Source of the DNA: a virus
Taxonomy: Duplodnaviria > Heunggongvirae > Uroviricota > Caudoviricetes
Virus record (IMG/VR): IMGVR_UViG_2568526473_000002
Location: 1-40,006 of that record
Direction: 5' to 3' (one strand)
DNA: 40,006 bases
The translations under genes and the position numbers were made by a program. Position 1 is the first letter of the stretch. Every line of letters starts with the position of its first letter. The notes below the pieces were generated by a model, which ran no database searches, was not told where the DNA came from, and saw nothing but the letters and a program-made list of their open reading frames with translations. Positions 26,933 through 38,440 of the stretch are shown one piece after another.

Positions 26933-27103
26933 ATGTTTGTGAAACCTGTTAAAGGGCGGTCAGTGCCTGACCCTGCCCGCGGTGACCTTTTGCCCGCCGA
27001 AGGGCGAAATGTTGACGAGAACAACTACTGGCTGCGCCGTGAAGCAGCGGGTGATATCCGGCGCGTGAATAAAAAGGTGAACACCGATGACGATAAGCTT
27101 TAA
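26933..27103 (+). CDS. Small hypothetical ORF (56 aa) overlapping the sheath start
   Basis: ATG 26933 to TAA 27101-27103, traced by hand; below the ORF-track size threshold. Confidence 0.3.
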   Translation: MFVKPVKGRSVPDPARGDLLPAEGRNVDENNYWLRREAAGDIRRVNKKVNTDDDKL

Positions 27104-28583
27104 CACCATTCCGTCGAATACGCTGGTTCCGCTGTTTTATGCGGAAATGGATAACCAGGCGGCGAATACTGCACAGGACAGCGGAGCATCGCTGCTGATT
27201 GGTCATGCCAATAACGGCGCAGAGATTGTTGCCAACAGTCTGGTACTGATGCCGTCGGCAGACTATGCACGCCAGATTTGTGGTGCGGGAAGTCAGCTGG
27301 CGCGTATGGTCAAGGCTTATCGCCAGACCGACCCGTTTGGTGAACTGTATGTAATTGCCGTTCCTGAATCCACGGGCGCGGCGGCAACAGTTACGCTGAC
27401 GGTGACCGGGGCGGCAACCGAAACCGGCACGGTGAATGTTTATGTGGGACGTACCCGCGTGCAGGCACCGGTGACTAACGGCGATAACGTCACGACGATT
27501 GCCAGCAGTATCCAGGATGCCATCAATGCCGTTCCGGCCCTGCCGTTTACGGCCTCATCTTCGGCTGGCGTGGTCACACTGACCGCGCGTCATAAGGGGC
27601 TTTGCGGGAATGAAATTCCTGTCAGCCTCAATTACTACGGCTTTGGTGGGGGCGAAGTGCTGCCTGCGGGCGTACAGATTGCCGTGGCGACGGGGACCGC
27701 CGGAACGGGCTCTCCTGTTCTCACCGGCGCGGTGGCTGCAATGGCGGATGAGCCGTTTGATTATATCGGCCTGCCGTTCAACGACACGGCCTCCGTTAAC
27801 ACACTGGTGACCGAGATGAACGATACCAGCGGTCGCTGGAGCTATGCGCGTCAGCTGTATGGTCATGTGTATACGGCAAAGATCGGCACGCTGTCAGAAC
27901 TGGTGACCGCAGGTGACCAGTTCAACCAGCAGCACATTACCCTGGCGGGGTACGAAAAAGAGACCCAGACGCCTGCCGACGAGCTGGCGGCAAGCCGTAC
28001 CGCCCGCGCAGCGGTGTTTATCCGCAACGATCCGGCACGTCCCACGCAGACCGGTGAGCTGGTGGGTATGCTGCCTGCGCCGAAGGGGAAACGGTTCACG
28101 ATGACCGAGCAGCAGACCCTGCTGTCTCATGGCGTGGCAACGGCGTATGTCGAAAGCGGGGTGCTGCGCATTCAGCGTGATGTCACCACGTACAGGAAAA
28201 ACGCTTACGGGGTTGCGGATAACAGCTACCTCGACAGCGAGACGCTGCATACCAGTGCGTATGTACTGCGCAAACTGAAATCCGTCATTACCAGTAAGTA
28301 CGGGCGTCACAAGCTTGCCAGCGACGGTACCCGCTTTGGTCCCGGTCAGGCGATTGTCACCCCGGCGGTAATCAAAGGGGAACTGCTGGCAACCTACCGT
28401 CAGCTTGAGCGTGCGGGGATCGTGGAAAACTACGAACTGTTTAAGCAGTACCTGGTTGTGGAGCGTGATGCCAGCGATCCGAACCGCCTGAACACGCTGT
28501 TCCCGCCTGACTATGTTAACCAGTTGCGTGTTTTTGCCGTGGTTAACCAGTTCCGTCTTCAGTATTCAGAGGAGTCTGCATAA
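27087..28583 (+). CDS. Contractile tail sheath protein (498 aa)
   Basis: Size and order (sheath, tube, chaperone with frameshift, tape measure) typical of Mu/SfV-like myovirus tails. Confidence 0.8.
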   Translation: MTISFNTIPSNTLVPLFYAEMDNQAANTAQDSGASLLIGHANNGAEIVANSLVLMPSADYARQICGAGSQLARMVKAYRQTDPFGELYVIAVPESTGAAATVTLTVTGAATETGTVNVYVGRTRVQAPVTNGDNVTTIASSIQDAINAVPALPFTASSSAGVVTLTARHKGLCGNEIPVSLNYYGFGGGEVLPAGVQIAVATGTAGTGSPVLTGAVAAMADEPFDYIGLPFNDTASVNTLVTEMNDTSGRWSYARQLYGHVYTAKIGTLSELVTAGDQFNQQHITLAGYEKETQTPADELAASRTARAAVFIRNDPARPTQTGELVGMLPAPKGKRFTMTEQQTLLSHGVATAYVESGVLRIQRDVTTYRKNAYGVADNSYLDSETLHTSAYVLRKLKSVITSKYGRHKLASDGTRFGPGQAIVTPAVIKGELLATYRQLERAGIVENYELFKQYLVVERDASDPNRLNTLFPPDYVNQLRVFAVVNQFRLQYSEESA

Positions 28584-28939
28584 TGGCCCGTATCGGGGGA
28601 ACCTGTTATTTCAAAATTGACGGTCAGCAGCTATCGCTGACCGGCGGCATTGAGGTGCCCATGAACAGGACGGTCAATGATGACATCATCGGCCTGGACG
28701 GTTCAGTGGACCGCAAGGAAACTCACCGTGCGCCTTATGTCAAAGGGACCTTCAAGGTGTCGAAGAATTTTCCGGTGAGCAAAATCACCTCGTCTGATGA
28801 GATGACCATCACTGCCGAGCTGGCAAACGGTCAGGTCTATGTACTGTCGTCTGCCTGGCTGCACGGCGAAGCGAACCATAATGCCGAAGAAGGCACGGTC
28901 GATCTTGAGTTCCACGGTGAAGAAGGGGATTACCAGTAA
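28583..28939 (+). CDS. Tail tube protein (118 aa)
   Basis: Small protein immediately after the sheath, ATGG overlap. Confidence 0.72.
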   Translation: MARIGGTCYFKIDGQQLSLTGGIEVPMNRTVNDDIIGLDGSVDRKETHRAPYVKGTFKVSKNFPVSKITSSDEMTITAELANGQVYVLSSAWLHGEANHNAEEGTVDLEFHGEEGDYQ

Positions 28940-29208
28940 TGAAAGAGCTTGAGTTAAAGAAACCGATTACCGCTCATGGCGAGACACTCTCCGTACTGGA
29001 GTTTGATGAGCCCACCGGGAAAGATGTCCGCGAGCTGGGGTATCCCTACCAGATGAATCAGGATGAGTCCGTCAGACTTCTGGCGCATGTGGTATCGAAA
29101 TACATTGTGCGGCTGGCGAAAGTGCCGCAAAGCTCTGTCGACCAGATGTCTCCGGCAGACCTGAATGCAGCGGCGTGGCTTGTGGCTGGTTTTTTCCTCC
29201 AGGCCTGA
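28939..29208 (+). CDS. Tail assembly chaperone, frame-0 product; a -1 frameshift fusion product would extend to 29357
   Basis: Two overlapping ORFs (28939..29208 and 29175..29357) between tube and tape measure, with slippery T TTT TTC at 29190-29196. Confidence 0.6.
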   Translation: MKELELKKPITAHGETLSVLEFDEPTGKDVRELGYPYQMNQDESVRLLAHVVSKYIVRLAKVPQSSVDQMSPADLNAAAWLVAGFFLQA

Positions 29209-29349
29209 CGGCTGAATACCTTACTGATCGCTTCTTTGACTGCGCCAGCTACTGGCGCATTAATCCTTTCGAATTGCTGAATATGCCGATCAGTGAAATT
29301 CCCTTACTGGTCAGTCAGGCAAACAGGATAGAGCAGGAGAAACGCACAC

Positions 29350-31185
29350 ATGGCTGAATTTGAGCTTAAGGCGTTGATCACCGGTGTCGACAGGCTTTCT
29401 CCCGCGCTGTCGAAAATGCAAAAGAAAATCCGGGGATTTAAACGCCAGGCGGAAGAAGCGTCACAGGGTGGGCTGGCGCTTGGTGGCGGACTGGCAGCGG
29501 GTCTGACGCTTTCCCTGAAATCTTATGCCGATCAGGAAAACGCCGCCACCGGGCTGAAAGTCGCCATGATGGATGCGAACGGCGAGGTTGGAAAGCGCTT
29601 TCAGGACATCAATAAACTGGCTATTGGCCTGGGTAACCAGCTACCCGGTACAACGGCTGATTTCCAGAACATGATGCAGATGCTGGTGCGTCAGGGGATC
29701 CCGGCAGAAAACATTCTGGGTGGTGTGGGTAAAGCGACAGCTTATCTTGCGGTACAACTGAAAAAAACACCGGAAGCGGCTGCTGAGTTTGCTGCAAAGA
29801 TGCAGGATGCTACCGGAACGGCGTCAGAAGACATGATGGGGCTGTTCGACACTATCCAGAAGGCGTTTTATCTGGGCGTTGACGATACCAACATGTTGTC
29901 CTTCTTCACTAAAACCAGTTCTGTTCTGAAGATGGTGAACAAGGACGGTCTTCAGGCTGCACAGAGCCTTGCCCCCATCAGCGTCATGATGGATCAGATG
30001 GGGATGAACGGGGAGTCGGCAGGTAATGCCCTGCGAAAAGTTATCCAGTCCGGATTAAGCGTTAAGAAAATCAGGGACGTTAATAAAGTTATGGCCCGCC
30101 AGAAACTCGGGGTACAGCTCGATTTTACTGACGGCAAAGGAAGTTTTGGCGGTCTTGATAACATGTTCAGGCAACTGGCAAAGCTGCGAAAACTGACCGA
30201 CGTTAAGCGAACAGGTGTACTTAAGGCAATATTTGGTGATGATGCTGAAACCCTTCAGGTGGTCAATGCTCTGATCGATAAAGGAAAGGATGGTTACGAT
30301 CAGATCCAGCAGAAGATGAATAAACAGGCCAGCCTGAATAAACGTGTTCAGGCCCAGCTTGGTACGCTGTCCAACCTGTGGGAGGCAATGACGGGGACCG
30401 CAACTAACGGCCTTGCGGCTATTGGCGGCGCATTTTCTGGTGACGCCAAAAATATCACGCAATGGCTGGGAGAGTTAGGGGAAAAATTCACGAAGTTTGC
30501 GGATGAAAATCCCCGGGTTATTCGCGGCGTCTTCGGGCTTGCTGCCGGTCTTGCGATTCTGAAACTGGGATTGATGGGCGTTGGCGGTGCCATCAGTATT
30601 GTCAGCAGGATCATGTCGATGACGCCGATTGGAATGATTGCGACGGCGATAGCCCTGGCTGCGGGATTAATTATCACTAACTGGGATGTTGTCGGACCTT
30701 ATTTCAAGAAGCTCTGGGAAACCATTGGTCCTTATTTTGAGGCTGGCTGGGAACTTCTGAAGAAGGTTTTTGCCTGGTCGCCGCTGGGGATGGTAATCAA
30801 TAACTGGGGACCGGTTGTTAAGTGGTTTCAGGATATGTGGGATAAGCTGAAGCCGATTATTGAATGGTTTACCGACAGTTCCGGTGACACGGTCGATGCC
30901 ATTAACTCTGCGCAGTGGGGCGCGGGTGCTTATGATGCTTATGGGACGGGAATACCGGCACGGGGATACACACCTTATCCGGCGGTGGATCTGGCTCAGT
31001 CAAACAACGCCTCCGATGCCACAGGCCTGAATCCCTTCATGATTAATAAAGCTACTGCGCCAAAAGTTGATGGTGAGATCAAGGTCTCTTTTGTGAATTC
31101 GCCTCCGGGTATGCGGGTTATGGAAACGCGTTCCAGCGGTTTTGATGTCAGCCATGATGTTGGCTATACGCGCTTTGGCAGGTAA
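29350..31185 (+). CDS. Tail tape measure protein (611 aa)
   Basis: Long Ala/Gly-rich protein with internal hydrophobic segments, directly after the chaperone pair. Confidence 0.85.
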   Translation: MAEFELKALITGVDRLSPALSKMQKKIRGFKRQAEEASQGGLALGGGLAAGLTLSLKSYADQENAATGLKVAMMDANGEVGKRFQDINKLAIGLGNQLPGTTADFQNMMQMLVRQGIPAENILGGVGKATAYLAVQLKKTPEAAAEFAAKMQDATGTASEDMMGLFDTIQKAFYLGVDDTNMLSFFTKTSSVLKMVNKDGLQAAQSLAPISVMMDQMGMNGESAGNALRKVIQSGLSVKKIRDVNKVMARQKLGVQLDFTDGKGSFGGLDNMFRQLAKLRKLTDVKRTGVLKAIFGDDAETLQVVNALIDKGKDGYDQIQQKMNKQASLNKRVQAQLGTLSNLWEAMTGTATNGLAAIGGAFSGDAKNITQWLGELGEKFTKFADENPRVIRGVFGLAAGLAILKLGLMGVGGAISIVSRIMSMTPIGMIATAIALAAGLIITNWDVVGPYFKKLWETIGPYFEAGWELLKKVFAWSPLGMVINNWGPVVKWFQDMWDKLKPIIEWFTDSSGDTVDAINSAQWGAGAYDAYGTGIPARGYTPYPAVDLAQSNNASDATGLNPFMINKATAPKVDGEIKVSFVNSPPGMRVMETRSSGFDVSHDVGYTRFGR

Positions 31186-31245
31186 TGAAAAATTAATCTG
31201 TTAATGAGTCCCACTCCGGTGGGATTTTTTATGTACGGAGTTTAT

Positions 31246-32574
31246 ATGACGTGGAAAGACAGACTTCAGGACGCGTCATTTCGCGGTGTGCCGTTTAAGG
31301 TTGAAGAAGAAAGTGCGGGAACCGGTCGTCGTGTGGAAACGCACGAATACCCGAACCGCGACAAACCCTATACCGAAGACCTGGGGAAAATTACTTTCCG
31401 CCCGTCCATCACAGCTTATGTGGTGGGAGATGACTGCTTTGACCAGCGCGATCGCCTGATTGACGCGCTGAATAAACCCGGTTCCGGCACGCTTGTCCAT
31501 CCGACTTACGGTGAGCTGAAAGTCTGTGTTGACGGAGAGGTTCGGGTCAGCACATCGAAGAGTGAAGGGCGTATTGTCCGCTTTGACCTGAAGTTTGTCG
31601 AAGCGGGAGAACTCTCTTACCCCACTTCAGGTGCGGCGACGGCGCAGACGCTGATGTCATCCTGTTCTGCACTGGATGACTGCATCAGTGACAGCTTCAG
31701 TGGTTTCAGTATCGATGGCGTGGCAGATTTTGTGCAGAACGACGTCGTCGGTAATGCCAGCACAATGCTTAGGTATGTTTCTGATGCGATGAAAGTGGTG
31801 GATTCTGCCGTATCGGATGCCGCCAGGCTGTTGCAGGGGGATATCTCGGTACTTCTGCCGCCGCCATCGTCAGGCAAAAATTTCGTTGAGCAGGTGCAGA
31901 AAATGTGGCGTACCGGGAAACGCCTTTATGGTAACGCCAGCGACCTGGTCACCATGATCAAAACGCTTTCCGGTGTCAGCCTCGGCAGCGATCTGCAACC
32001 GCGCGGCGTCTGGAAAACGGACAGTAAAACCACCGCCACGGCGACGCAGCAGCGTAACGTGGTTGCCAGCACCCTTCGTACGACCGCAATCAGCGAAGCG
32101 GCGTATGCCGTCACCCGATTGCCTGCGCCAACAACTTCCGCGGTGATGCAGAATGCCGCAGTGGGGCAGGCAACAACACCCGCGCAGAGCACTGGCTGGC
32201 CTTCCGTCACGCATCCGGCACTGAACAATGCACCGGCGGTGAAAAGCACGGTTGACCTGCCGACGTGGGAAGAACTGACTGACATTCGCGACACACTGAA
32301 TACGGCAATTGATAAGGAGTTGTCCCGAACAACCAGTGATGCGCTGTTTCTGGCGCTGCGCCGGGTGAAAGCAGATCTGAATGCGGATATCAACACGCGC
32401 CTTGAACAGTCTGCACGGATCATTCAGCGCACGCCGGATGAGGTTTTACCCGCGCTGGTGCTGGCGGCGACCTGGTTTGATAACGCGGCGCGTGACGCGG
32501 ACATTATCCGGCGTAATGCCATTACGCATCCCGGCTTTGTGCCGGTGATCCCTCTGAAGGTGCCAGTGCAATGA
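31246..32574 (+). CDS. DNA circularization protein (Mu gpN-like)
   Basis: Position after the tape measure; start at ATG 31246 with GGAG RBS. Confidence 0.65.
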   Translation: MTWKDRLQDASFRGVPFKVEEESAGTGRRVETHEYPNRDKPYTEDLGKITFRPSITAYVVGDDCFDQRDRLIDALNKPGSGTLVHPTYGELKVCVDGEVRVSTSKSEGRIVRFDLKFVEAGELSYPTSGAATAQTLMSSCSALDDCISDSFSGFSIDGVADFVQNDVVGNASTMLRYVSDAMKVVDSAVSDAARLLQGDISVLLPPPSSGKNFVEQVQKMWRTGKRLYGNASDLVTMIKTLSGVSLGSDLQPRGVWKTDSKTTATATQQRNVVASTLRTTAISEAAYAVTRLPAPTTSAVMQNAAVGQATTPAQSTGWPSVTHPALNNAPAVKSTVDLPTWEELTDIRDTLNTAIDKELSRTTSDALFLALRRVKADLNADINTRLEQSARIIQRTPDEVLPALVLAATWFDNAARDADIIRRNAITHPGFVPVIPLKVPVQ

Positions 32575-33650
32575 ACGATAACGTCACGCTACGGGTAAAT
32601 GGCCGGGAGTGGAATGGCTGGACATCGGTGCGCATCGGTGCCGGTGTTGAACGACTGGCGCGGGATTTCAGTGTGGAGATCACCCGCCAGTGGCCGGGAG
32701 ATGAGGGTATTACCATGCTTCAGTCGCGCATTAAAAACGGTTCAAAAGTGGAGGTGCTGATTGGTGATGAGCTGGTGATCACCGGCTGGGTGGAGGCGAC
32801 GCCCGTTCGTTACGATGCCCGTTCGGTCAGCACCGGTATTGCCGGACGTAGTCTGACCGCTGACCTGATTGACTGTGCAGCCGAACCGACACAGTTTAAC
32901 GGACGATCGCTGGTACAGATTGCGCAGGCGCTTGCTGCGCCTTTCGGCATTGAGGTGGTGAACAGCGGTGCGCCGTCGGGTGTTATTCCTGATGTCCAGC
33001 CTGATCACGGTGAAACGGTGATTGAGGTGATCAACAAAATACTCGGTCAGCAGCAGGCGCTGGCTTACGACGACCCGCACGGCAGGCTGGTGATTGGTGG
33101 TATTGGCTCAACGCGGGCACATACCGCGCTGGTACTTGGGGAAAACATCCTTTCCTGCGATACGGAGAAGAGTATCCGGGAGCGGTTTTCTGTTTACCAG
33201 GTGGCGGGGCAGCGTGCCGGAAACGACGATGATTTCGGTGAGGCCACCACCACCGCGCTGCGGGCCCGCACAGAGGACGCATTTATTGCCCGTTACCGTC
33301 CGATGTATATCAGGCAGACAGGGCAGGCTACGGGGGCAGGCTGTATTGCGCGTGCTGACTTTGAAGCCCGGCAACGGGCGGCGCGGACGGATGAAACCAC
33401 CTATGTGGTGCAGGGCTGGCGACAGGGTAACGGTACGCTGTGGCAACCCAACCAGCGGGTGATTGTCTTTGATCCGGTCTGTGGTTTTGACAATACCGAA
33501 CTGCTTGTTTCGGAAGTCACGTTTACTCAGGACCAGAACGGCACCCTGACGGAAATCCGTGTCGGCCCGCCTGATGCTTATCTGCCTGAACCTGAAGACC
33601 CCGGCGCGCGGAAAAAGAAAAAAGCCAGAGTACAGGAGGACCCGTTCTGA
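32571..33650 (+). CDS. Baseplate hub protein (Mu gpP-like / late control D family)
   Basis: 359 aa, position in the Mu-like baseplate block. Confidence 0.7.
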   Translation: MNDNVTLRVNGREWNGWTSVRIGAGVERLARDFSVEITRQWPGDEGITMLQSRIKNGSKVEVLIGDELVITGWVEATPVRYDARSVSTGIAGRSLTADLIDCAAEPTQFNGRSLVQIAQALAAPFGIEVVNSGAPSGVIPDVQPDHGETVIEVINKILGQQQALAYDDPHGRLVIGGIGSTRAHTALVLGENILSCDTEKSIRERFSVYQVAGQRAGNDDDFGEATTTALRARTEDAFIARYRPMYIRQTGQATGAGCIARADFEARQRAARTDETTYVVQGWRQGNGTLWQPNQRVIVFDPVCGFDNTELLVSEVTFTQDQNGTLTEIRVGPPDAYLPEPEDPGARKKKKARVQEDPF

Positions 33651-34198
33651 TGAGGACGATTGAAGCCATGCAGCGACAACTTCTCGGCCTGATTGGGCGG
33701 GCAGTGGTGAAAAGCATCAGTGCCGCCACGAAATGTCAGACCGTGGATGTGTCCCTGATTGCCGGTGAACCCAAAGCCGGGGTTGAACATCTTGAACCCT
33801 ACGGTTTTACCGCAAGGGCAAACAGCGGTGCGGAAGCGGTGGTGTTGTTTCCGGATGGCGACCGTTCTCATGCGGTGGTTGTTACGGTGTCGGACCGGCG
33901 CTACCGCCTGAAAGGGCTGCAGACGGGGGAGGTGGCTGTCTATGACGATCAGGGGCAGTCTGTGACGCTGACCCGGGAGGGGATCGTGGTGGACGGTGCA
34001 GGTAAAACGATCACGTTTCGCAATGCGCCCAGAGCACGTTTTGAAATGGACCTAGAAGTGACCGGACAGGTGAAAGACCTGTGCGACTCCGGCGGCACCA
34101 CCATGTCAGCGATGCGGCTTGCCTATAACGGCCATCGTCACAGAGAGAACGGTCAGGGCAGTAACACCGACAAACCGGATAAAGCGATGGAGGCATGA
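33650..34198 (+). CDS. Baseplate spike/assembly protein (Mu gp45-like)
   Basis: Position and size in the conserved Mu-like order. Confidence 0.6.
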   Translation: MRTIEAMQRQLLGLIGRAVVKSISAATKCQTVDVSLIAGEPKAGVEHLEPYGFTARANSGAEAVVLFPDGDRSHAVVVTVSDRRYRLKGLQTGEVAVYDDQGQSVTLTREGIVVDGAGKTITFRNAPRARFEMDLEVTGQVKDLCDSGGTTMSAMRLAYNGHRHRENGQGSNTDKPDKAMEA

Positions 34199-34623
34199 TG
34201 GAACTGTGGCTGACGGTGAACGGTAAACGCACCTGCGCCAGCGCACCGCTGGATCCGCTGACCCGCGCCGTGGTGATTTCCCTGTTCACCTGGCGGCGGG
34301 CGGAGCCTGATGACAATGCCGACGTCCCGATGGGATGGTGGGGGGATACCTGGCCTGCGGTACAGAATGACCGTTACGGCTCCCGGCTGTGGCTGCTTCA
34401 GCGCGGCAAACTGACCAATCAGCTGGTGCAGACGGTAAGGGGGTATATCCGCGAATGCCTGCAATGGATGATTGATGACGGTGTGGTGTCCCGTATTGAT
34501 CTGGATATCCGCCGCACCGGGATTAATGAACTGGGTAACAGTATCACTCTCTGGCGTCGTGACGGACCGGTAATGATTTCTTTTGATGATCTGTGGAGTG
34601 CGATAACGCATGGCGGACAGTGA
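34195..34623 (+). CDS. Baseplate protein (Mu gp46-like)
   Basis: Position and size in the conserved Mu-like order. Confidence 0.55.
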   Translation: MMELWLTVNGKRTCASAPLDPLTRAVVISLFTWRRAEPDDNADVPMGWWGDTWPAVQNDRYGSRLWLLQRGKLTNQLVQTVRGYIRECLQWMIDDGVVSRIDLDIRRTGINELGNSITLWRRDGPVMISFDDLWSAITHGGQ

Positions 34624-35668
34624 ATTTCAGCGCCCGACGCTGGCAGAAAATATCAGTATGCTCCGTAACGATTTATTCGCCAGGCTGGACGTCAGCGACA
34701 CGCTCCGGCGCATGGATGAAGACGTGCGGGCAAAGGTGTATGCGGCGGCGCTGCATACGGTTTACGGTTACATCGATTATCTGGCAATGAACATGCTGCC
34801 TGACCTGTGCGATGAGTCCTGGCTGGCGCGACATGCTGCGATGAAACGGTGTCCGCGCAAGGGGGCCACGGCTGCCAGCGGGTATATGCGCTGGGAAGGT
34901 GTCAGCGATGGCCTGAAGGTGACCGCCGGGAGTGTTATTCAGCGCGATGACCTGGTTCAGTACACGGCAACTGCCGATGCAACCAGCTCCGGTGGTGTCC
35001 TGCGCGTGCCGATCGCCTGCTCAAGTGCAGGCGCGGTCGGTAACGCTGACGACGGTACGTCATTAATCCTGGTCACGCCGGTGAATGGTCTGCCGTCTTC
35101 CGGCGTGGCAGATACCCTGACAGGTGGATTTGATACTGAAGAGCTGGAAACGTGGCGCGCCCGCGTCATTGAGCGGTATTACTGGACGCCTCAGGGCGGG
35201 GCTGACGGGGACTATGTTGTCTGGGCTAAAGAAGTGCCAGGCATTACCCGTGCATGGACATACCGCCACTGGATGGGAACGGGGACTGTCGGTGTGATGA
35301 TTGCCAGCAGTGACCTGATTAATCCCATTCCGGAAGAATCAACGGAAACGGCGGCAAGACAACACATTGAGCCACTGGCCCCGGTGGCAGGCTCTGATTT
35401 GTATGTATTCAGGCCGGTGGCGCATAAAGTGGATTTTCATATCCGCGTGACGCCGGACACACCAGAAATACGGGCTGCCATTACCGCGGAGTTGCGTTCG
35501 TTCCTGCTGCGTGATGGTTATCCGCAGGGAGAGCTGAAGGTGTCGCGTATCAGTGAAGCGATTTCCGGTGCGAACGGGGAATACAGCCATCAGTTGCTTG
35601 CACCGGCAGACAATATCTCCATTGCGAAAAACGAACTGGCGGTTCTGGGGACGATTTCATGGACGTGA
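34610..35668 (+). CDS. Baseplate J-like protein (Mu gp47-like)
   Basis: 352 aa, position and size typical of baseplate J. Confidence 0.75.
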
Positions 35669-36243
35669 CAAACGATGATTACATCCGTCTGTTGTCAGCA
35701 CTGTTGCCGCCCGGTCCGGCGTGGTCAGCCAGCGATCCGGCGATTGCCGGTGCAGCACCGTCATTAACCCGTGTTCATCAGCGTGCGGATGCCCTGATGC
35801 GGGAGCTGGATCCGCGCACCACCACCGAACTGATAAACCGCTGGGAGCGTCTGTGCGGCCTGCCGGATGAATGTATTCCCGCAGGGACACAGACCCTTCG
35901 CCAGCGTCAGCAACGGCTGGATGCGAAGGTTAACCTGGCGGGCGGCATCAACGAGGATTTTTATCTTGCACAGCTTGCTGCCCTGGGCAGACCAGATGCC
36001 ACCATCACGCGATACGACAAAAGCACCTTCACCTGCTCATCGGCCTGTACTGACGCGGTGAATGCGCCGGAATGGCGGTATTACTGGCAGGTCAACATGC
36101 CAGCTGCCACCAACACCACCTGGATGACATGTGGTGATCCCTGTGATTCCGCACTGCGTATCTGGGGCGACACCGTTGTCGAGTGTGTGCTTAACAAACT
36201 CTGCCCTTCGCATACCTACGTAATTTTTAAATATCCGGAGTAA
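35659..36243 (+). CDS. Tail protein (Mu gp48-like, DUF2313-like)
   Basis: Position directly upstream of the tail fibre gene. Confidence 0.6.
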
Positions 36244-36246
36244 TCC

Positions 36247-36885
36247 ATGCATCGTATAGACACGAAAACCGCGCAGAAGGATAAGTTCGGCGCGGGTAAG
36301 AACGGTTTTACCCGTGGTAACCCCCAGACCGGCACACCTGCCACCGATCTGGATGATGACTACTTTGACATGTTGCAGGAAGAACTCTGCAGCGTGGTGG
36401 AGGCATCCGGTGCCAGCCTGGAGAAGGGGCGGCATGACCAGCTGCTTACCGCGCTTCGTGCGCTGCTGTTAAGCCGCAAAAATCCGTTTGGCGATATCAA
36501 ATCGGACGGCACGGTGAAAACGGCTCTCGAAAACCTTGGTTTGGGAGAAGCGGCAAAACGGAATGTGGGAACAGGGGAAAATCAGATACCAGATATGTCT
36601 GCATTTCCATCTGGCAAAAACTGGTTTCAGTTACCAAGTGGTCATATTGTCCAAATGTTTTCGATGAATGTTTATGGGGCGGACACTAACGGAACTACAG
36701 GTAATTTCCCTATTGCATTTCCTTCAGGCGCACTGGCTGTTAGTGCCTTATGGTCAGATGGCACATTAACGGCTGCTCCGACCTTTAAACTTATGGGGTA
36801 CACGACAACAAGGACATCAGTAACCTTAAAAGTATCAACCGGAAATGGTTTGTATGGAACTATGATTATCGCAATAGGAAGATAA
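36247..36885 (+). CDS. Tail fibre protein, expressed orientation (conserved N-terminus, variable C-terminus)
   Basis: Contains the crossover motif LGLGE encoded at 36536-36549; followed by a tail fibre assembly gene. Confidence 0.75.
36536..36549. other. Left inversion crossover site (gix/pix-like), ttggtttgggagaa
   Basis: 14-bp perfect inverted repeat of 38372-38385, embedded in an AAACC..GGTTT-type pseudo-palindrome (tcgaaaaccttggtttgggagaa). Confidence 0.7.
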
Positions 36886-37904: not shown

Positions 37905-38440
37905 TATGCAGCCCTCACGATATAGTTAAATGCAATATTTCGTGGACGGGTTTCACTCCCGCCAGTATTACCGATACTCCCTCGTGAATGAAGTGTCGGT
38001 GATGGGATCAGACTCCCTCCGGCAGCGGCAGCATCAAGCCCCCTGCCTTGCTTATATGCTCTTCTGAAGATTGTCGCTAGTTCCCATTCCTCTTTTGAGT
38101 CATACCCATCGTTGGCGACAACAGGATGACGGTGCTTTTCCAGCATTCCGGCCTGAATACTCAATAAAACACGTCCTGCATCAATACCGCGCCCGTCATC
38201 CCAGCCACGAATAAACTCACCGCGTAAATCAGGTAATTTATTTGTTGGATAAGCCTTTGCCAGTTCCGGGTATTCTTCAGCAGAAAATGCCGCACCGTTG
38301 CATTTCAGCCAGCCTGTTGGCGGTGTGGCTGAAGGCCATGGAACAGGCACACCAACAGGTAATGCAGAGCCTTCTCCCAAACCAACGTTTATGAAAATGA
38401 AGAAATAACAAGCAAATGGCATCATTCCTGCTTTTACCAA
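37904..38440 (-). CDS. Alternative tail fibre C-terminal (receptor-binding) cassette, promoterless in the current orientation
   Basis: Reading frame passes through the right crossover site, encoding the same LGLGE junction; no plausible own N-terminus. Confidence 0.7.
   Translation of the reverse strand: MVKAGMMPFACYFFIFINVGLGEGSALPVGVPVPWPSATPPTGWLKCNGAAFSAEEYPELAKAYPTNKLPDLRGEFIRGWDDGRGIDAGRVLLSIQAGMLEKHRHPVVANDGYDSKEEWELATIFRRAYKQGRGLDAAAAGGSLIPSPTLHSRGSIGNTGGSETRPRNIAFNYIVRAA
38372..38397. other. Right inversion crossover site (gix/pix-like), ttctcccaaaccaacgtttatgaaaa
   Basis: Pseudo-palindromic site of Gin/Hin/Pin type (AAACC..GTTT core); inverted repeat of the left site; immediately upstream of the invertase remnant. 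Confidence 0.7.

Follow-up and report, generated by a model that had tools for sequence, protein, structure and literature searches.

We analysed a stretch of 40,006 nucleotides (nt), positions 1 to 40,006 of the IMG/VR virus record IMGVR_UViG_2568526473_000002 (hereafter the window), and find that a small gene in its tail operon very probably carries a real programmed -1 ribosomal frameshift, of an ordinary and known kind, that would yield two tail chaperone proteins. Judged by its nucleotide identity (99% to SfI), the window is a prophage of the SfV/SfI type with a Mu-like contractile tail. An earlier note on this DNA had proposed a -1 slip on the heptamer T TTT TTC near the end of the open reading frame (ORF) at 28939..29208, giving a fusion of the G/GT type found in tailed phages. 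As far as sequence comparison can place it, the site is a newly recognised and unannotated tail-chaperone frameshift that stands nearest to E/E+E' of phage P2 and sits in a Mu-like tail module. The elements of the predicted frameshift are as follows.

28939 to 29208, plus strand: zero-frame tail assembly chaperone ORF ("G", or gpE-like), 89 amino acids (aa), with matches to PF10109 (Phage_TAC_7) and phrog_166.
29190 to 29196, plus strand: slippery heptamer T_TTT_TTC, of the form X_XXY_YYZ in the zero-frame register.
29206 to 29208, plus strand: zero-frame stop codon TGA, 9 nt (3 codons) 3' of the heptamer.
29196 to 29357, plus strand: -1 extension ("T", or E'-like), 53 codons (PPGLTAEY...EKRTHG) plus the TGA at 29355-29357.

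The 89-aa ORF ends in ...AAWLVAGFFLQA followed by its stop, and its last codons are GCT GGT(29188) TTT(29191) TTC(29194) CTC CAG GCC TGA(29206). The codons GGT TTT TTC confirm the register that had been proposed for the heptamer at 29190-29196. The -1 frame is open from 29067, and after a slip it reads CCT CCA GGC CTG ACG GCT GAA TAC (PPGLTAEYLTDR...) as far as the TGA at 29355-29357. The base C29196 is used in both frames: it closes the zero-frame codon TTC and then opens CCT, the first codon after the slip. The proposed fusion, join(28939..29196, 29196..29357), has 139 aa (...VAGFF|PPGLTAEY...THG), a predicted mass of ~15.6 kDa and the junction peptide ...LVAGFFPPGLTAEYLTDR. The ORF at 29175-29357 that a program lists from a GTG start is this same -1 frame, and the continuation after GFF claimed in the earlier note is thus upheld. 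The +1/-2 frame closes 2 codons past the zero-frame stop.

The zero-frame product is recognisable as a tail assembly chaperone. It matches PF10109 with E=1.9e-16 and 60.3 bits (cut-off 25), residues 4-86 aligning with profile positions 2-78. The family is titled "Phage tail assembly chaperone proteins, E, or 41 or 14" and includes P2 gpE; PGAP names the 89-aa product "phage tail assembly protein". The extension matches a single family, phrog_32181 (unknown function; E=4e-40). NCBIfam has no model for either the chaperone or the extension, and a PDB sequence search returned nothing relevant. A protein in PMC5581363 appears to have the same domain as the window chaperone.

Heptamers of this kind are frequent. 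The plus strand of the window holds 179 sequences of the form XXXYYYZ, including nine TTTTTTC, and a naive scan of both strands finds 16 places where an in-register heptamer leads into a -1 extension of 30 codons or more. The other 15 are mostly cases of a spurious open frame lying over a real gene. The heptamer by itself is therefore not significant, and what lifts the site above chance is its position between the tail tube and tape measure genes and, above all, its conservation. The chaperone is the only gene between these two, and 141 nt 3' of its stop are otherwise unassigned. The -1 ORF fills this apparent gap exactly: its TGA overlaps the tape-measure ATG at 29350 (ATGGCTGA), which has AGGAG 11 nt upstream.

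Conservation was assessed over 183 loci with 128 distinct sequences. The set comprises 23 genome loci from Enterobacterales and from the betaproteobacterium Derxia, with protein identities from 100% down to 40%, four further phages (AH07, F1055, YeP1 and SfIV) and 156 IMG/VR contigs among the matches listed, with 421 further relatives lying outside the sample. T_TTT_TTY occurs in register in all 27 genome and phage relatives. Among the 128 distinct relatives, 123 keep T_TTT_TTN in register, with identities reaching as low as about 36-40%, and P2 has it too; to be counted, the -1 extension had to continue for 20 codons or more beyond the zero-frame stop wherever the contig was long enough to tell, three being cut by a contig end. 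In 22 distinct genes, Gly84 is always GGT and Phe85 always TTT (22/22 each), whereas the other 25 conserved degenerate codons all vary, with 2-5 synonyms each. The codon ahead of the T run is GGT, AAT (Asn), CGT (Arg) or AGT (Ser) and always ends in T. Since a T-ending codon is kept across four amino acids, the constraint acts on the nucleotide and not on the amino acid. The run itself has six T in the window and seven in 33 of the 123 distinct relatives. The zero-frame stop moves between 3 and 63 nt past the heptamer, while the heptamer stays fixed.

The second frame is conserved as a protein. In the genome loci the -1 ORF extends a stable 156-183 nt past the heptamer, and in nearly all of 24 sequences its stop overlaps or abuts the tape-measure ATG (one has GTG instead). 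Its product keeps the motif F-D-C-A-x-Y-W-R-I-N-P...Q-A-N-R-I, with A103, W106, P110, R130 and I131 invariant, and the conserved protein starts right at the heptamer. Variable columns 3' of the chaperone stop number 28, 18 and 40 at the first, second and third codon positions of the -1 frame. This peak at third positions, together with the conserved motif, argues that the -1 frame is translated.

These observations also bear on the view that no recoding takes place, in which the heptamer would follow from a need for Gly-Phe-Phe, the -1 frame would be fortuitous or decayed, and 29209-29349 would be untranslated spacer. Heptamers and long alternative open frames are indeed common by chance, G-F-F is conserved at the protein level, the region is blank in public annotations, and the bare heptamer is weak in reporter assays. 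An absence of recoding nevertheless fails to explain the exclusive use of GGT and TTT, or the T-ending codons for four different residues. It also leaves aside a -1 frame whose length, end and protein motif are kept to about 36% identity, with variation biased to third positions, and which aligns with E' of P2. We consider it very unlikely indeed.

The -1 frame could instead be a separate small gene with its own start, encoding a 60-aa protein from the GTG at 29175, as the annotation of phage vB_EcoM-689R6 has it. A -1 frame GTG does stand 15 nt ahead of the heptamer, this one record calls the product a "hypothetical protein", and PHROG 32181 is a family of such calls. There is, however, no Shine-Dalgarno sequence in the 18 nt (AGACCTGAATGCAGCGGC) ahead of that GTG, and the GTG is not conserved among relatives. 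No ATG, GTG or TTG precedes the heptamer in the -1 frame in 72 of 123 distinct relatives; the same holds for 13 of the 23 genome loci and for AH07, F1055, YeP1 and SfIV, and in 3 of the 23 loci the entire -1 ORF has no start codon. A gene beginning at the GTG also sits poorly with a conserved protein that begins at the heptamer. Because the start codons lack conservation and the GTG at 29175 lacks a Shine-Dalgarno sequence, independent initiation is not a conserved route into the -1 frame, and a separate gene is the least probable of the explanations that we weighed. The earlier note had named independent initiation of the second ORF as an outcome that would overturn its proposal; as a conserved mechanism, this fails. 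The sequence-level predictions of a G/GT-type fusion that we tested (gene position, conservation of the site, the second frame, and no conserved start of its own) were all borne out.

The long product could also arise through slippage of RNA polymerase. If the polymerase added one U in the T6 run, some of the mRNAs would encode the fusion in a single frame, and the resulting protein would be identical to that from a ribosomal slip. Long U/A runs are known to make the polymerase slip, and E. coli genes avoid them (PMC4066793, PMC5009743). The run is homopolymeric, with six T here and seven in the 33 relatives noted above, and its conservation fits both models. For bacterial RNA polymerase to slip efficiently, however, a run of six or seven T is short, and none of the 123 sequences has a run longer than seven. 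For the homologous P2 site, moreover, both the annotation and the literature give a translational -1 frameshift (PMC3091744). Transcriptional slippage is thus very unlikely, and we favour a ribosomal slip.

In the ribosomal mechanism that we propose, most ribosomes would stay in the zero frame and stop at the TGA at 29206, giving the 89-aa product. A minority would slip with tRNA-Phe on UUU (29191-93) in the P site and tRNA-Phe on UUC (29194-96) in the A site. Both tRNAs would shift one base back and re-pair with UUU UUU (29190-95), and reading would resume in the -1 frame from CCU (29196) to the TGA at 29355-57. The result would be a 139-aa fusion with the common N-terminus and a 53-residue C-terminal extension, and the slip would hold the long product at a constant low level relative to the short one. 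If the two products behave like those of lambda G/GT and P2 E/E+E', their common N-terminal part would coat the tape measure protein, whose gene follows directly, and the extension would bring in the tube subunit; both proteins would be absent from the finished virion. We infer the slippage itself, its efficiency, its ribosomal and not transcriptional nature, and the roles of the two products.

The gene belongs with the G/GT-type class of Xu, Hendrix & Duda (2004) by its position, by an in-register site within the overlap of the two frames, by conservation and by the lack of initiation signals for the second frame. Its closest known relative, to go by profile and alignment comparisons, is E/E+E' of P2 and not G/GT of lambda. 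In RefSeq NC_001895, P2 gene E has 91 aa and a joined E+E' coding sequence (CDS) has 142 aa, with a "site of -1 translational frameshift" at GTC GGT TTT TTG TCG. P2 E+E' matches PF10109 with 47.5 bits (residues 7-85, profile positions 2-78). Because both proteins match profile positions 2-78, G83-F84-L85 of P2 and G84-F85-F86 of the window protein fall in the same columns; position 78 is F86 here and L85 in P2, and GGT TTT TTC aligns with GGT TTT TTG. An hhalign comparison of a profile of 16 fusions with P2 E+E' gives an alignment of 118 columns that spans the junction (E=7e-5, probability 62%), pairing VAGF with VVGF and D-C-A-x-Y-W-R-I-N-P-x-E-L with D-V-A-V-I-F-H-W-P-P-S-E-L. The extension is likely to be remotely homologous to P2 E'.

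The resemblance to P2 extends to architecture. Both genes have a PF10109 N-terminal part and products of similar size (89/139 aa here, 91/142 aa in P2), and both lie between the tube and tape measure genes of a contractile tail with the -1 ORF ending over the tape-measure start. Both carry GG-TTTTTT at the homologous position (...VAGFF here, ...VVGFL in P2) and have no conserved adjacent RNA structure, the P2 site being described as lacking a stimulatory structure and cited as a translational -1 frameshift (PMC3091744). The two differ in the last base of the heptamer, which is G in P2 and C here (T in relatives), in the distance from the heptamer to the zero-frame stop (21 nt in P2, 9 nt here), and in the neighbouring tail genes, which are Mu-like here. 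A BLASTP comparison of the window protein with P2 is insignificant (E=0.63). Given this and the lack of a match between the extension and PF06528, the P2 E' model, we regard the window gene as a distant relative of P2 E/E+E' and not a close one. Of the features of the P2 gpE/E+E' family, it thus has the PF10109 match and the homologous site position, and lacks the PF06528 match.

The likeness to lambda gpG/gpGT lies in the gene order (the major tail protein gene, then a chaperone gene extended in the -1 frame, then the tape measure gene), in the common N-terminus, and in the expected roles of tape-measure binding and tube-subunit recruitment at a fixed product ratio (PMC5009743). The part common to the two lambda products attaches to the tape measure and the T part to the tube subunit, and the virion contains neither product; among long-tailed phages, shifts of the G/GT type are broadly conserved (PMC5009743, PMC3091744). 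The lambda site is G_GGA_AAG, with different tRNAs, the lambda tail is non-contractile, and the window gene matches no lambda-type chaperone family. The ratio of about 30:1 was measured in lambda and not here.

The flanking genes, by contrast, are those of Mu: they resemble Mup38, Mup39/L, Mup40/M, Mup42 and Mup43, with the chaperone in the same slot. Mu gp41 differs in being a 144-aa protein of PF23746 that reaches 24.7 bits on PF10109 (cut-off 25). The window protein has no PF23746 match, and hhalign against Mu gp41 gives a probability of 0.1%. Mu gp41 has been reported to use a -2 frameshift (PMC5009743, PMC2628397). A shift of this type does not fit the window, given the missing PF23746 match and the early closure of the +1/-2 frame, 2 codons past the stop. 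A P2-type -1 chaperone within a Mu-like module, set beside the -2 shift reported for Mu, indicates that the recoding device travels with the chaperone gene and not with the tail type.

Several observations weigh against a programmed frameshift at this site. The extension has no match to PF06528 (Phage_P2_GpE) even at E up to 10. Joined CDSs are present in none of nine SfV-group phage and E. coli RefSeq records, and we found no report that a fusion product of this phage group has been observed. Of 80 near-identical IMG/VR contigs, five have an altered site. No conserved stimulatory RNA structure or upstream Shine-Dalgarno-like element occurs at canonical spacing, whether in single-sequence folds, in RNAalifold or in per-lineage folds of positions +1 to +45. 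Finally, the efficiency here could be very low unless context helps, because bare UUUUUUC shifts at 0.12% in an E. coli reporter.

The earlier note had proposed a search for a stimulatory RNA structure downstream of the site. The 45 nt 3' of the heptamer fold weakly (-4.6 kcal/mol, z=+0.86), and an RNAalifold consensus of 20 relatives has essentially nothing (-3.9 kcal/mol, covariation term 0.09). No flanking nucleotides beyond GG-TTTTTT are conserved across lineages, and there is therefore no upstream Shine-Dalgarno-like element. The site accordingly lacks the canonical stimulated -1 frameshift signal of a heptamer with either a 5-9 nt spacer and a hairpin or pseudoknot, or an upstream Shine-Dalgarno element. 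The only strong hairpin nearby lies further downstream.

29241 to 29259, plus strand: 8-bp perfect hairpin or palindrome TGCGCCAG-cta-CTGGCGCA, 44 nt past the heptamer and inside the -1 ORF.

This hairpin occurs only once in the window and is neither a promoter nor a terminator. In 11 sequences of the close (SfV-like) clade its four degenerate codons are invariant, whereas codons for invariant residues elsewhere in the -1 ORF vary in 16 of 18 cases (Fisher test about 0.002, phylogeny ignored). When C-A-x-Y-W-R was resampled with common synonymous codons, the full hairpin arose in about 7% of draws, with a mean of -7 kcal/mol. The hairpin is lost in L017, L019, L022, L116, L124 and the SfIV group, all of which keep the heptamer, and it has no covariation or compensatory changes. 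We rejected it as a stimulator because it is largely imposed by C-A-x-Y-W-R, is lost in these lineages, lacks covariation and lies beyond the canonical stimulator distance; that it forms part of the frameshift signal is doubtful. The distant relatives L020, L027, L157 and L185 have strong hairpins of their own that start 2-5 nt past the heptamer, for example GGTCGGA-cgagcc-TCCGACC in L157 and a fold of -22 kcal/mol (z=-2.4) in Derxia L027. As the SfV clade lacks these hairpins, such stimulators, if that is what they are, would be lineage-specific.

Published reporter data frame what the heptamer might do unaided. In E. coli, the bare heptamers UUUUUUC, UUUUUUU and UUUUUUG shift at 0.12%, 0.33% and 0.12%, over a background of about 0.055%, and with a pseudoknot the same three reach 7.6%, 10.2% and 0.8% (PMC4066793, supplementary Table S3). 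Among tetramers in E. coli, U_UU.Y ranks second in its tendency to shift, and U_UU.U_UU.C is also prone to frameshifting (PMC4066793). The shifts of P2-type chaperones have been reported as more efficient than that of lambda (PMC4066793, PMC5009743). Should the long-to-short ratio in nature also lie in the per-cent range here, a driver beyond the heptamer would be needed, given ~0.1% for bare U_UUU_UUC. It is improbable, if not negligibly so, that the site carries an unrecognised stimulator; candidates may include the context set by the nascent peptide or the tRNAs at the conserved ...A-G-F-F, the closeness of the zero-frame stop, and the hairpin at 29241-29259 acting at a distance. The hairpin could act remotely, for example by way of a paused leading ribosome. 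The family offers a natural series on the efficiency of a bare U-rich heptamer, with T6C, T7 and T6G sites, stops from +3 to +63 nt and lineage-specific hairpins.

The site is intact in 75 of the 80 near-identical contigs. The five exceptions comprise two with an extra G, two with GGT>GGG and one with a compound indel, and they may be sequencing errors or decaying prophages; the overall conclusion is unaltered by them. In the two extra-G contigs (L034:1201-1617 and L035:1201-1617, from UViG_2585427747_000001 and UViG_2585427730_000011; GGGTTTTTTCC), the insertion creates a single in-frame 139-aa ORF with no short product; these contigs reflect either an error in sequencing or a naturally occurring "fusion-only" mutation. 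Six in-frame fusions in protein databases (P0001-P0006) were rejected as natural fusions. Their frames are joined at differing positions and they contain other errors, which marks them as assembly artefacts.

The main value of the finding is a correction to annotation, since the long chaperone is missing or split into a spurious "hypothetical protein" in every record inspected. These were SfI, SfV, SfIV, 689R6, AH07, F1055, YeP1, a RefSeq/PGAP E. coli chromosome and, by feature names only, SfII. The vB_EcoM-689R6 record calls the -1 ORF separately from the GTG at 29175, and the others leave 29209-29349 empty. In PHROG 32181, as in ON470584.1 at 9199-9381 (L001:2176-2358), the -1 extension is called as an independent "hypothetical protein". 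The family appears to be built of miscalled -1 extensions, an annotation artefact of ignoring the frameshift. The cluster is absent from the five prophage clusters of an E. coli-wide screen for conserved heptamers (Sharma et al. 2014), and no description of a frameshift in SfV-type phages was found in the literature searched, which did not cover the 2004 survey. This prophage type is widespread. Of 5426 complete E. coli genomes, 1063 (1071 records) have sequence matching part of a 501-nt query, 895 of them covering at least 80%; roughly one complete E. coli genome in five thus carries the type, which is also found in the Shigella serotype-converting phages SfI, SfII, SfIV and SfV.

Over 28500-29500 the window is 98-99% identical at the nucleotide level to SfI, SfV and SfII, serotype-converting phages of Shigella flexneri, and to several E. 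coli phages. The contractile-tail operon spans 27087-36243 and encodes the sheath, the tube, the 89-aa ORF, the tape measure, a DNA-circulation protein and baseplate genes. The neighbours of the chaperone gene are listed below.

27087 to 28583, plus strand: tail sheath gene, 498 aa, with matches to PF04984, PF17482, PF17481 and phrog_165.
28583 to 28939, plus strand: tail tube gene, 118 aa, with matches to PF10618 (Tail_tube, E=7e-34) and phrog_185.
29350 to 31185, plus strand: tape measure gene, 611 aa, with matches to PF10145 (E=5e-27), phrog_28 and phrog_17727.
31204 to 32574: gene for the DNA-circulation protein of the tail operon.

The sheath is annotated as similar to Mu gpL in the SfV, SfI and 689R6 records, and the TAA of the tube gene overlaps the ATG of the chaperone gene (TAATG). 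No promoter or terminator was found in 28800-29500, and Rfam gave zero matches across the whole window. The rest of the window belongs to the same prophage, with an integrase at 1-1164, a lambdoid early region and a head of the HK97 type.

Two further regions of the prophage deserve mention. Between 36247 and 38440 lie two facing pairs, each consisting of a tail-fibre C-terminus and a Caudo_TAP chaperone. Inverted repeats of 20 nt, at 36531-36550 and 38371-38390 (AAACCTTGGTTTGGGAGAAG; 95% complementary), form the boundaries of the pairs and resemble crossover sites of the Gin/Cin/Pin type. The segment would be an invertible host-range cassette like the G segment of Mu; no invertase gene was found between 38453 and an AraC-family gene at 39257 (no ORF of at least 60 aa). 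Within the lambdoid early region, 9622-13176 on the plus strand encodes an intimin/invasin-type inverse autotransporter of 1184 aa (PF11924 IAT_beta, E=4e-101, plus Big_1 and Invasin_D3 repeats), adjoined at 13213-14256 on the minus strand by an alpha/beta-hydrolase (BD-FAE). The two look like cargo (moron) genes, with possible relevance to adhesion or virulence.

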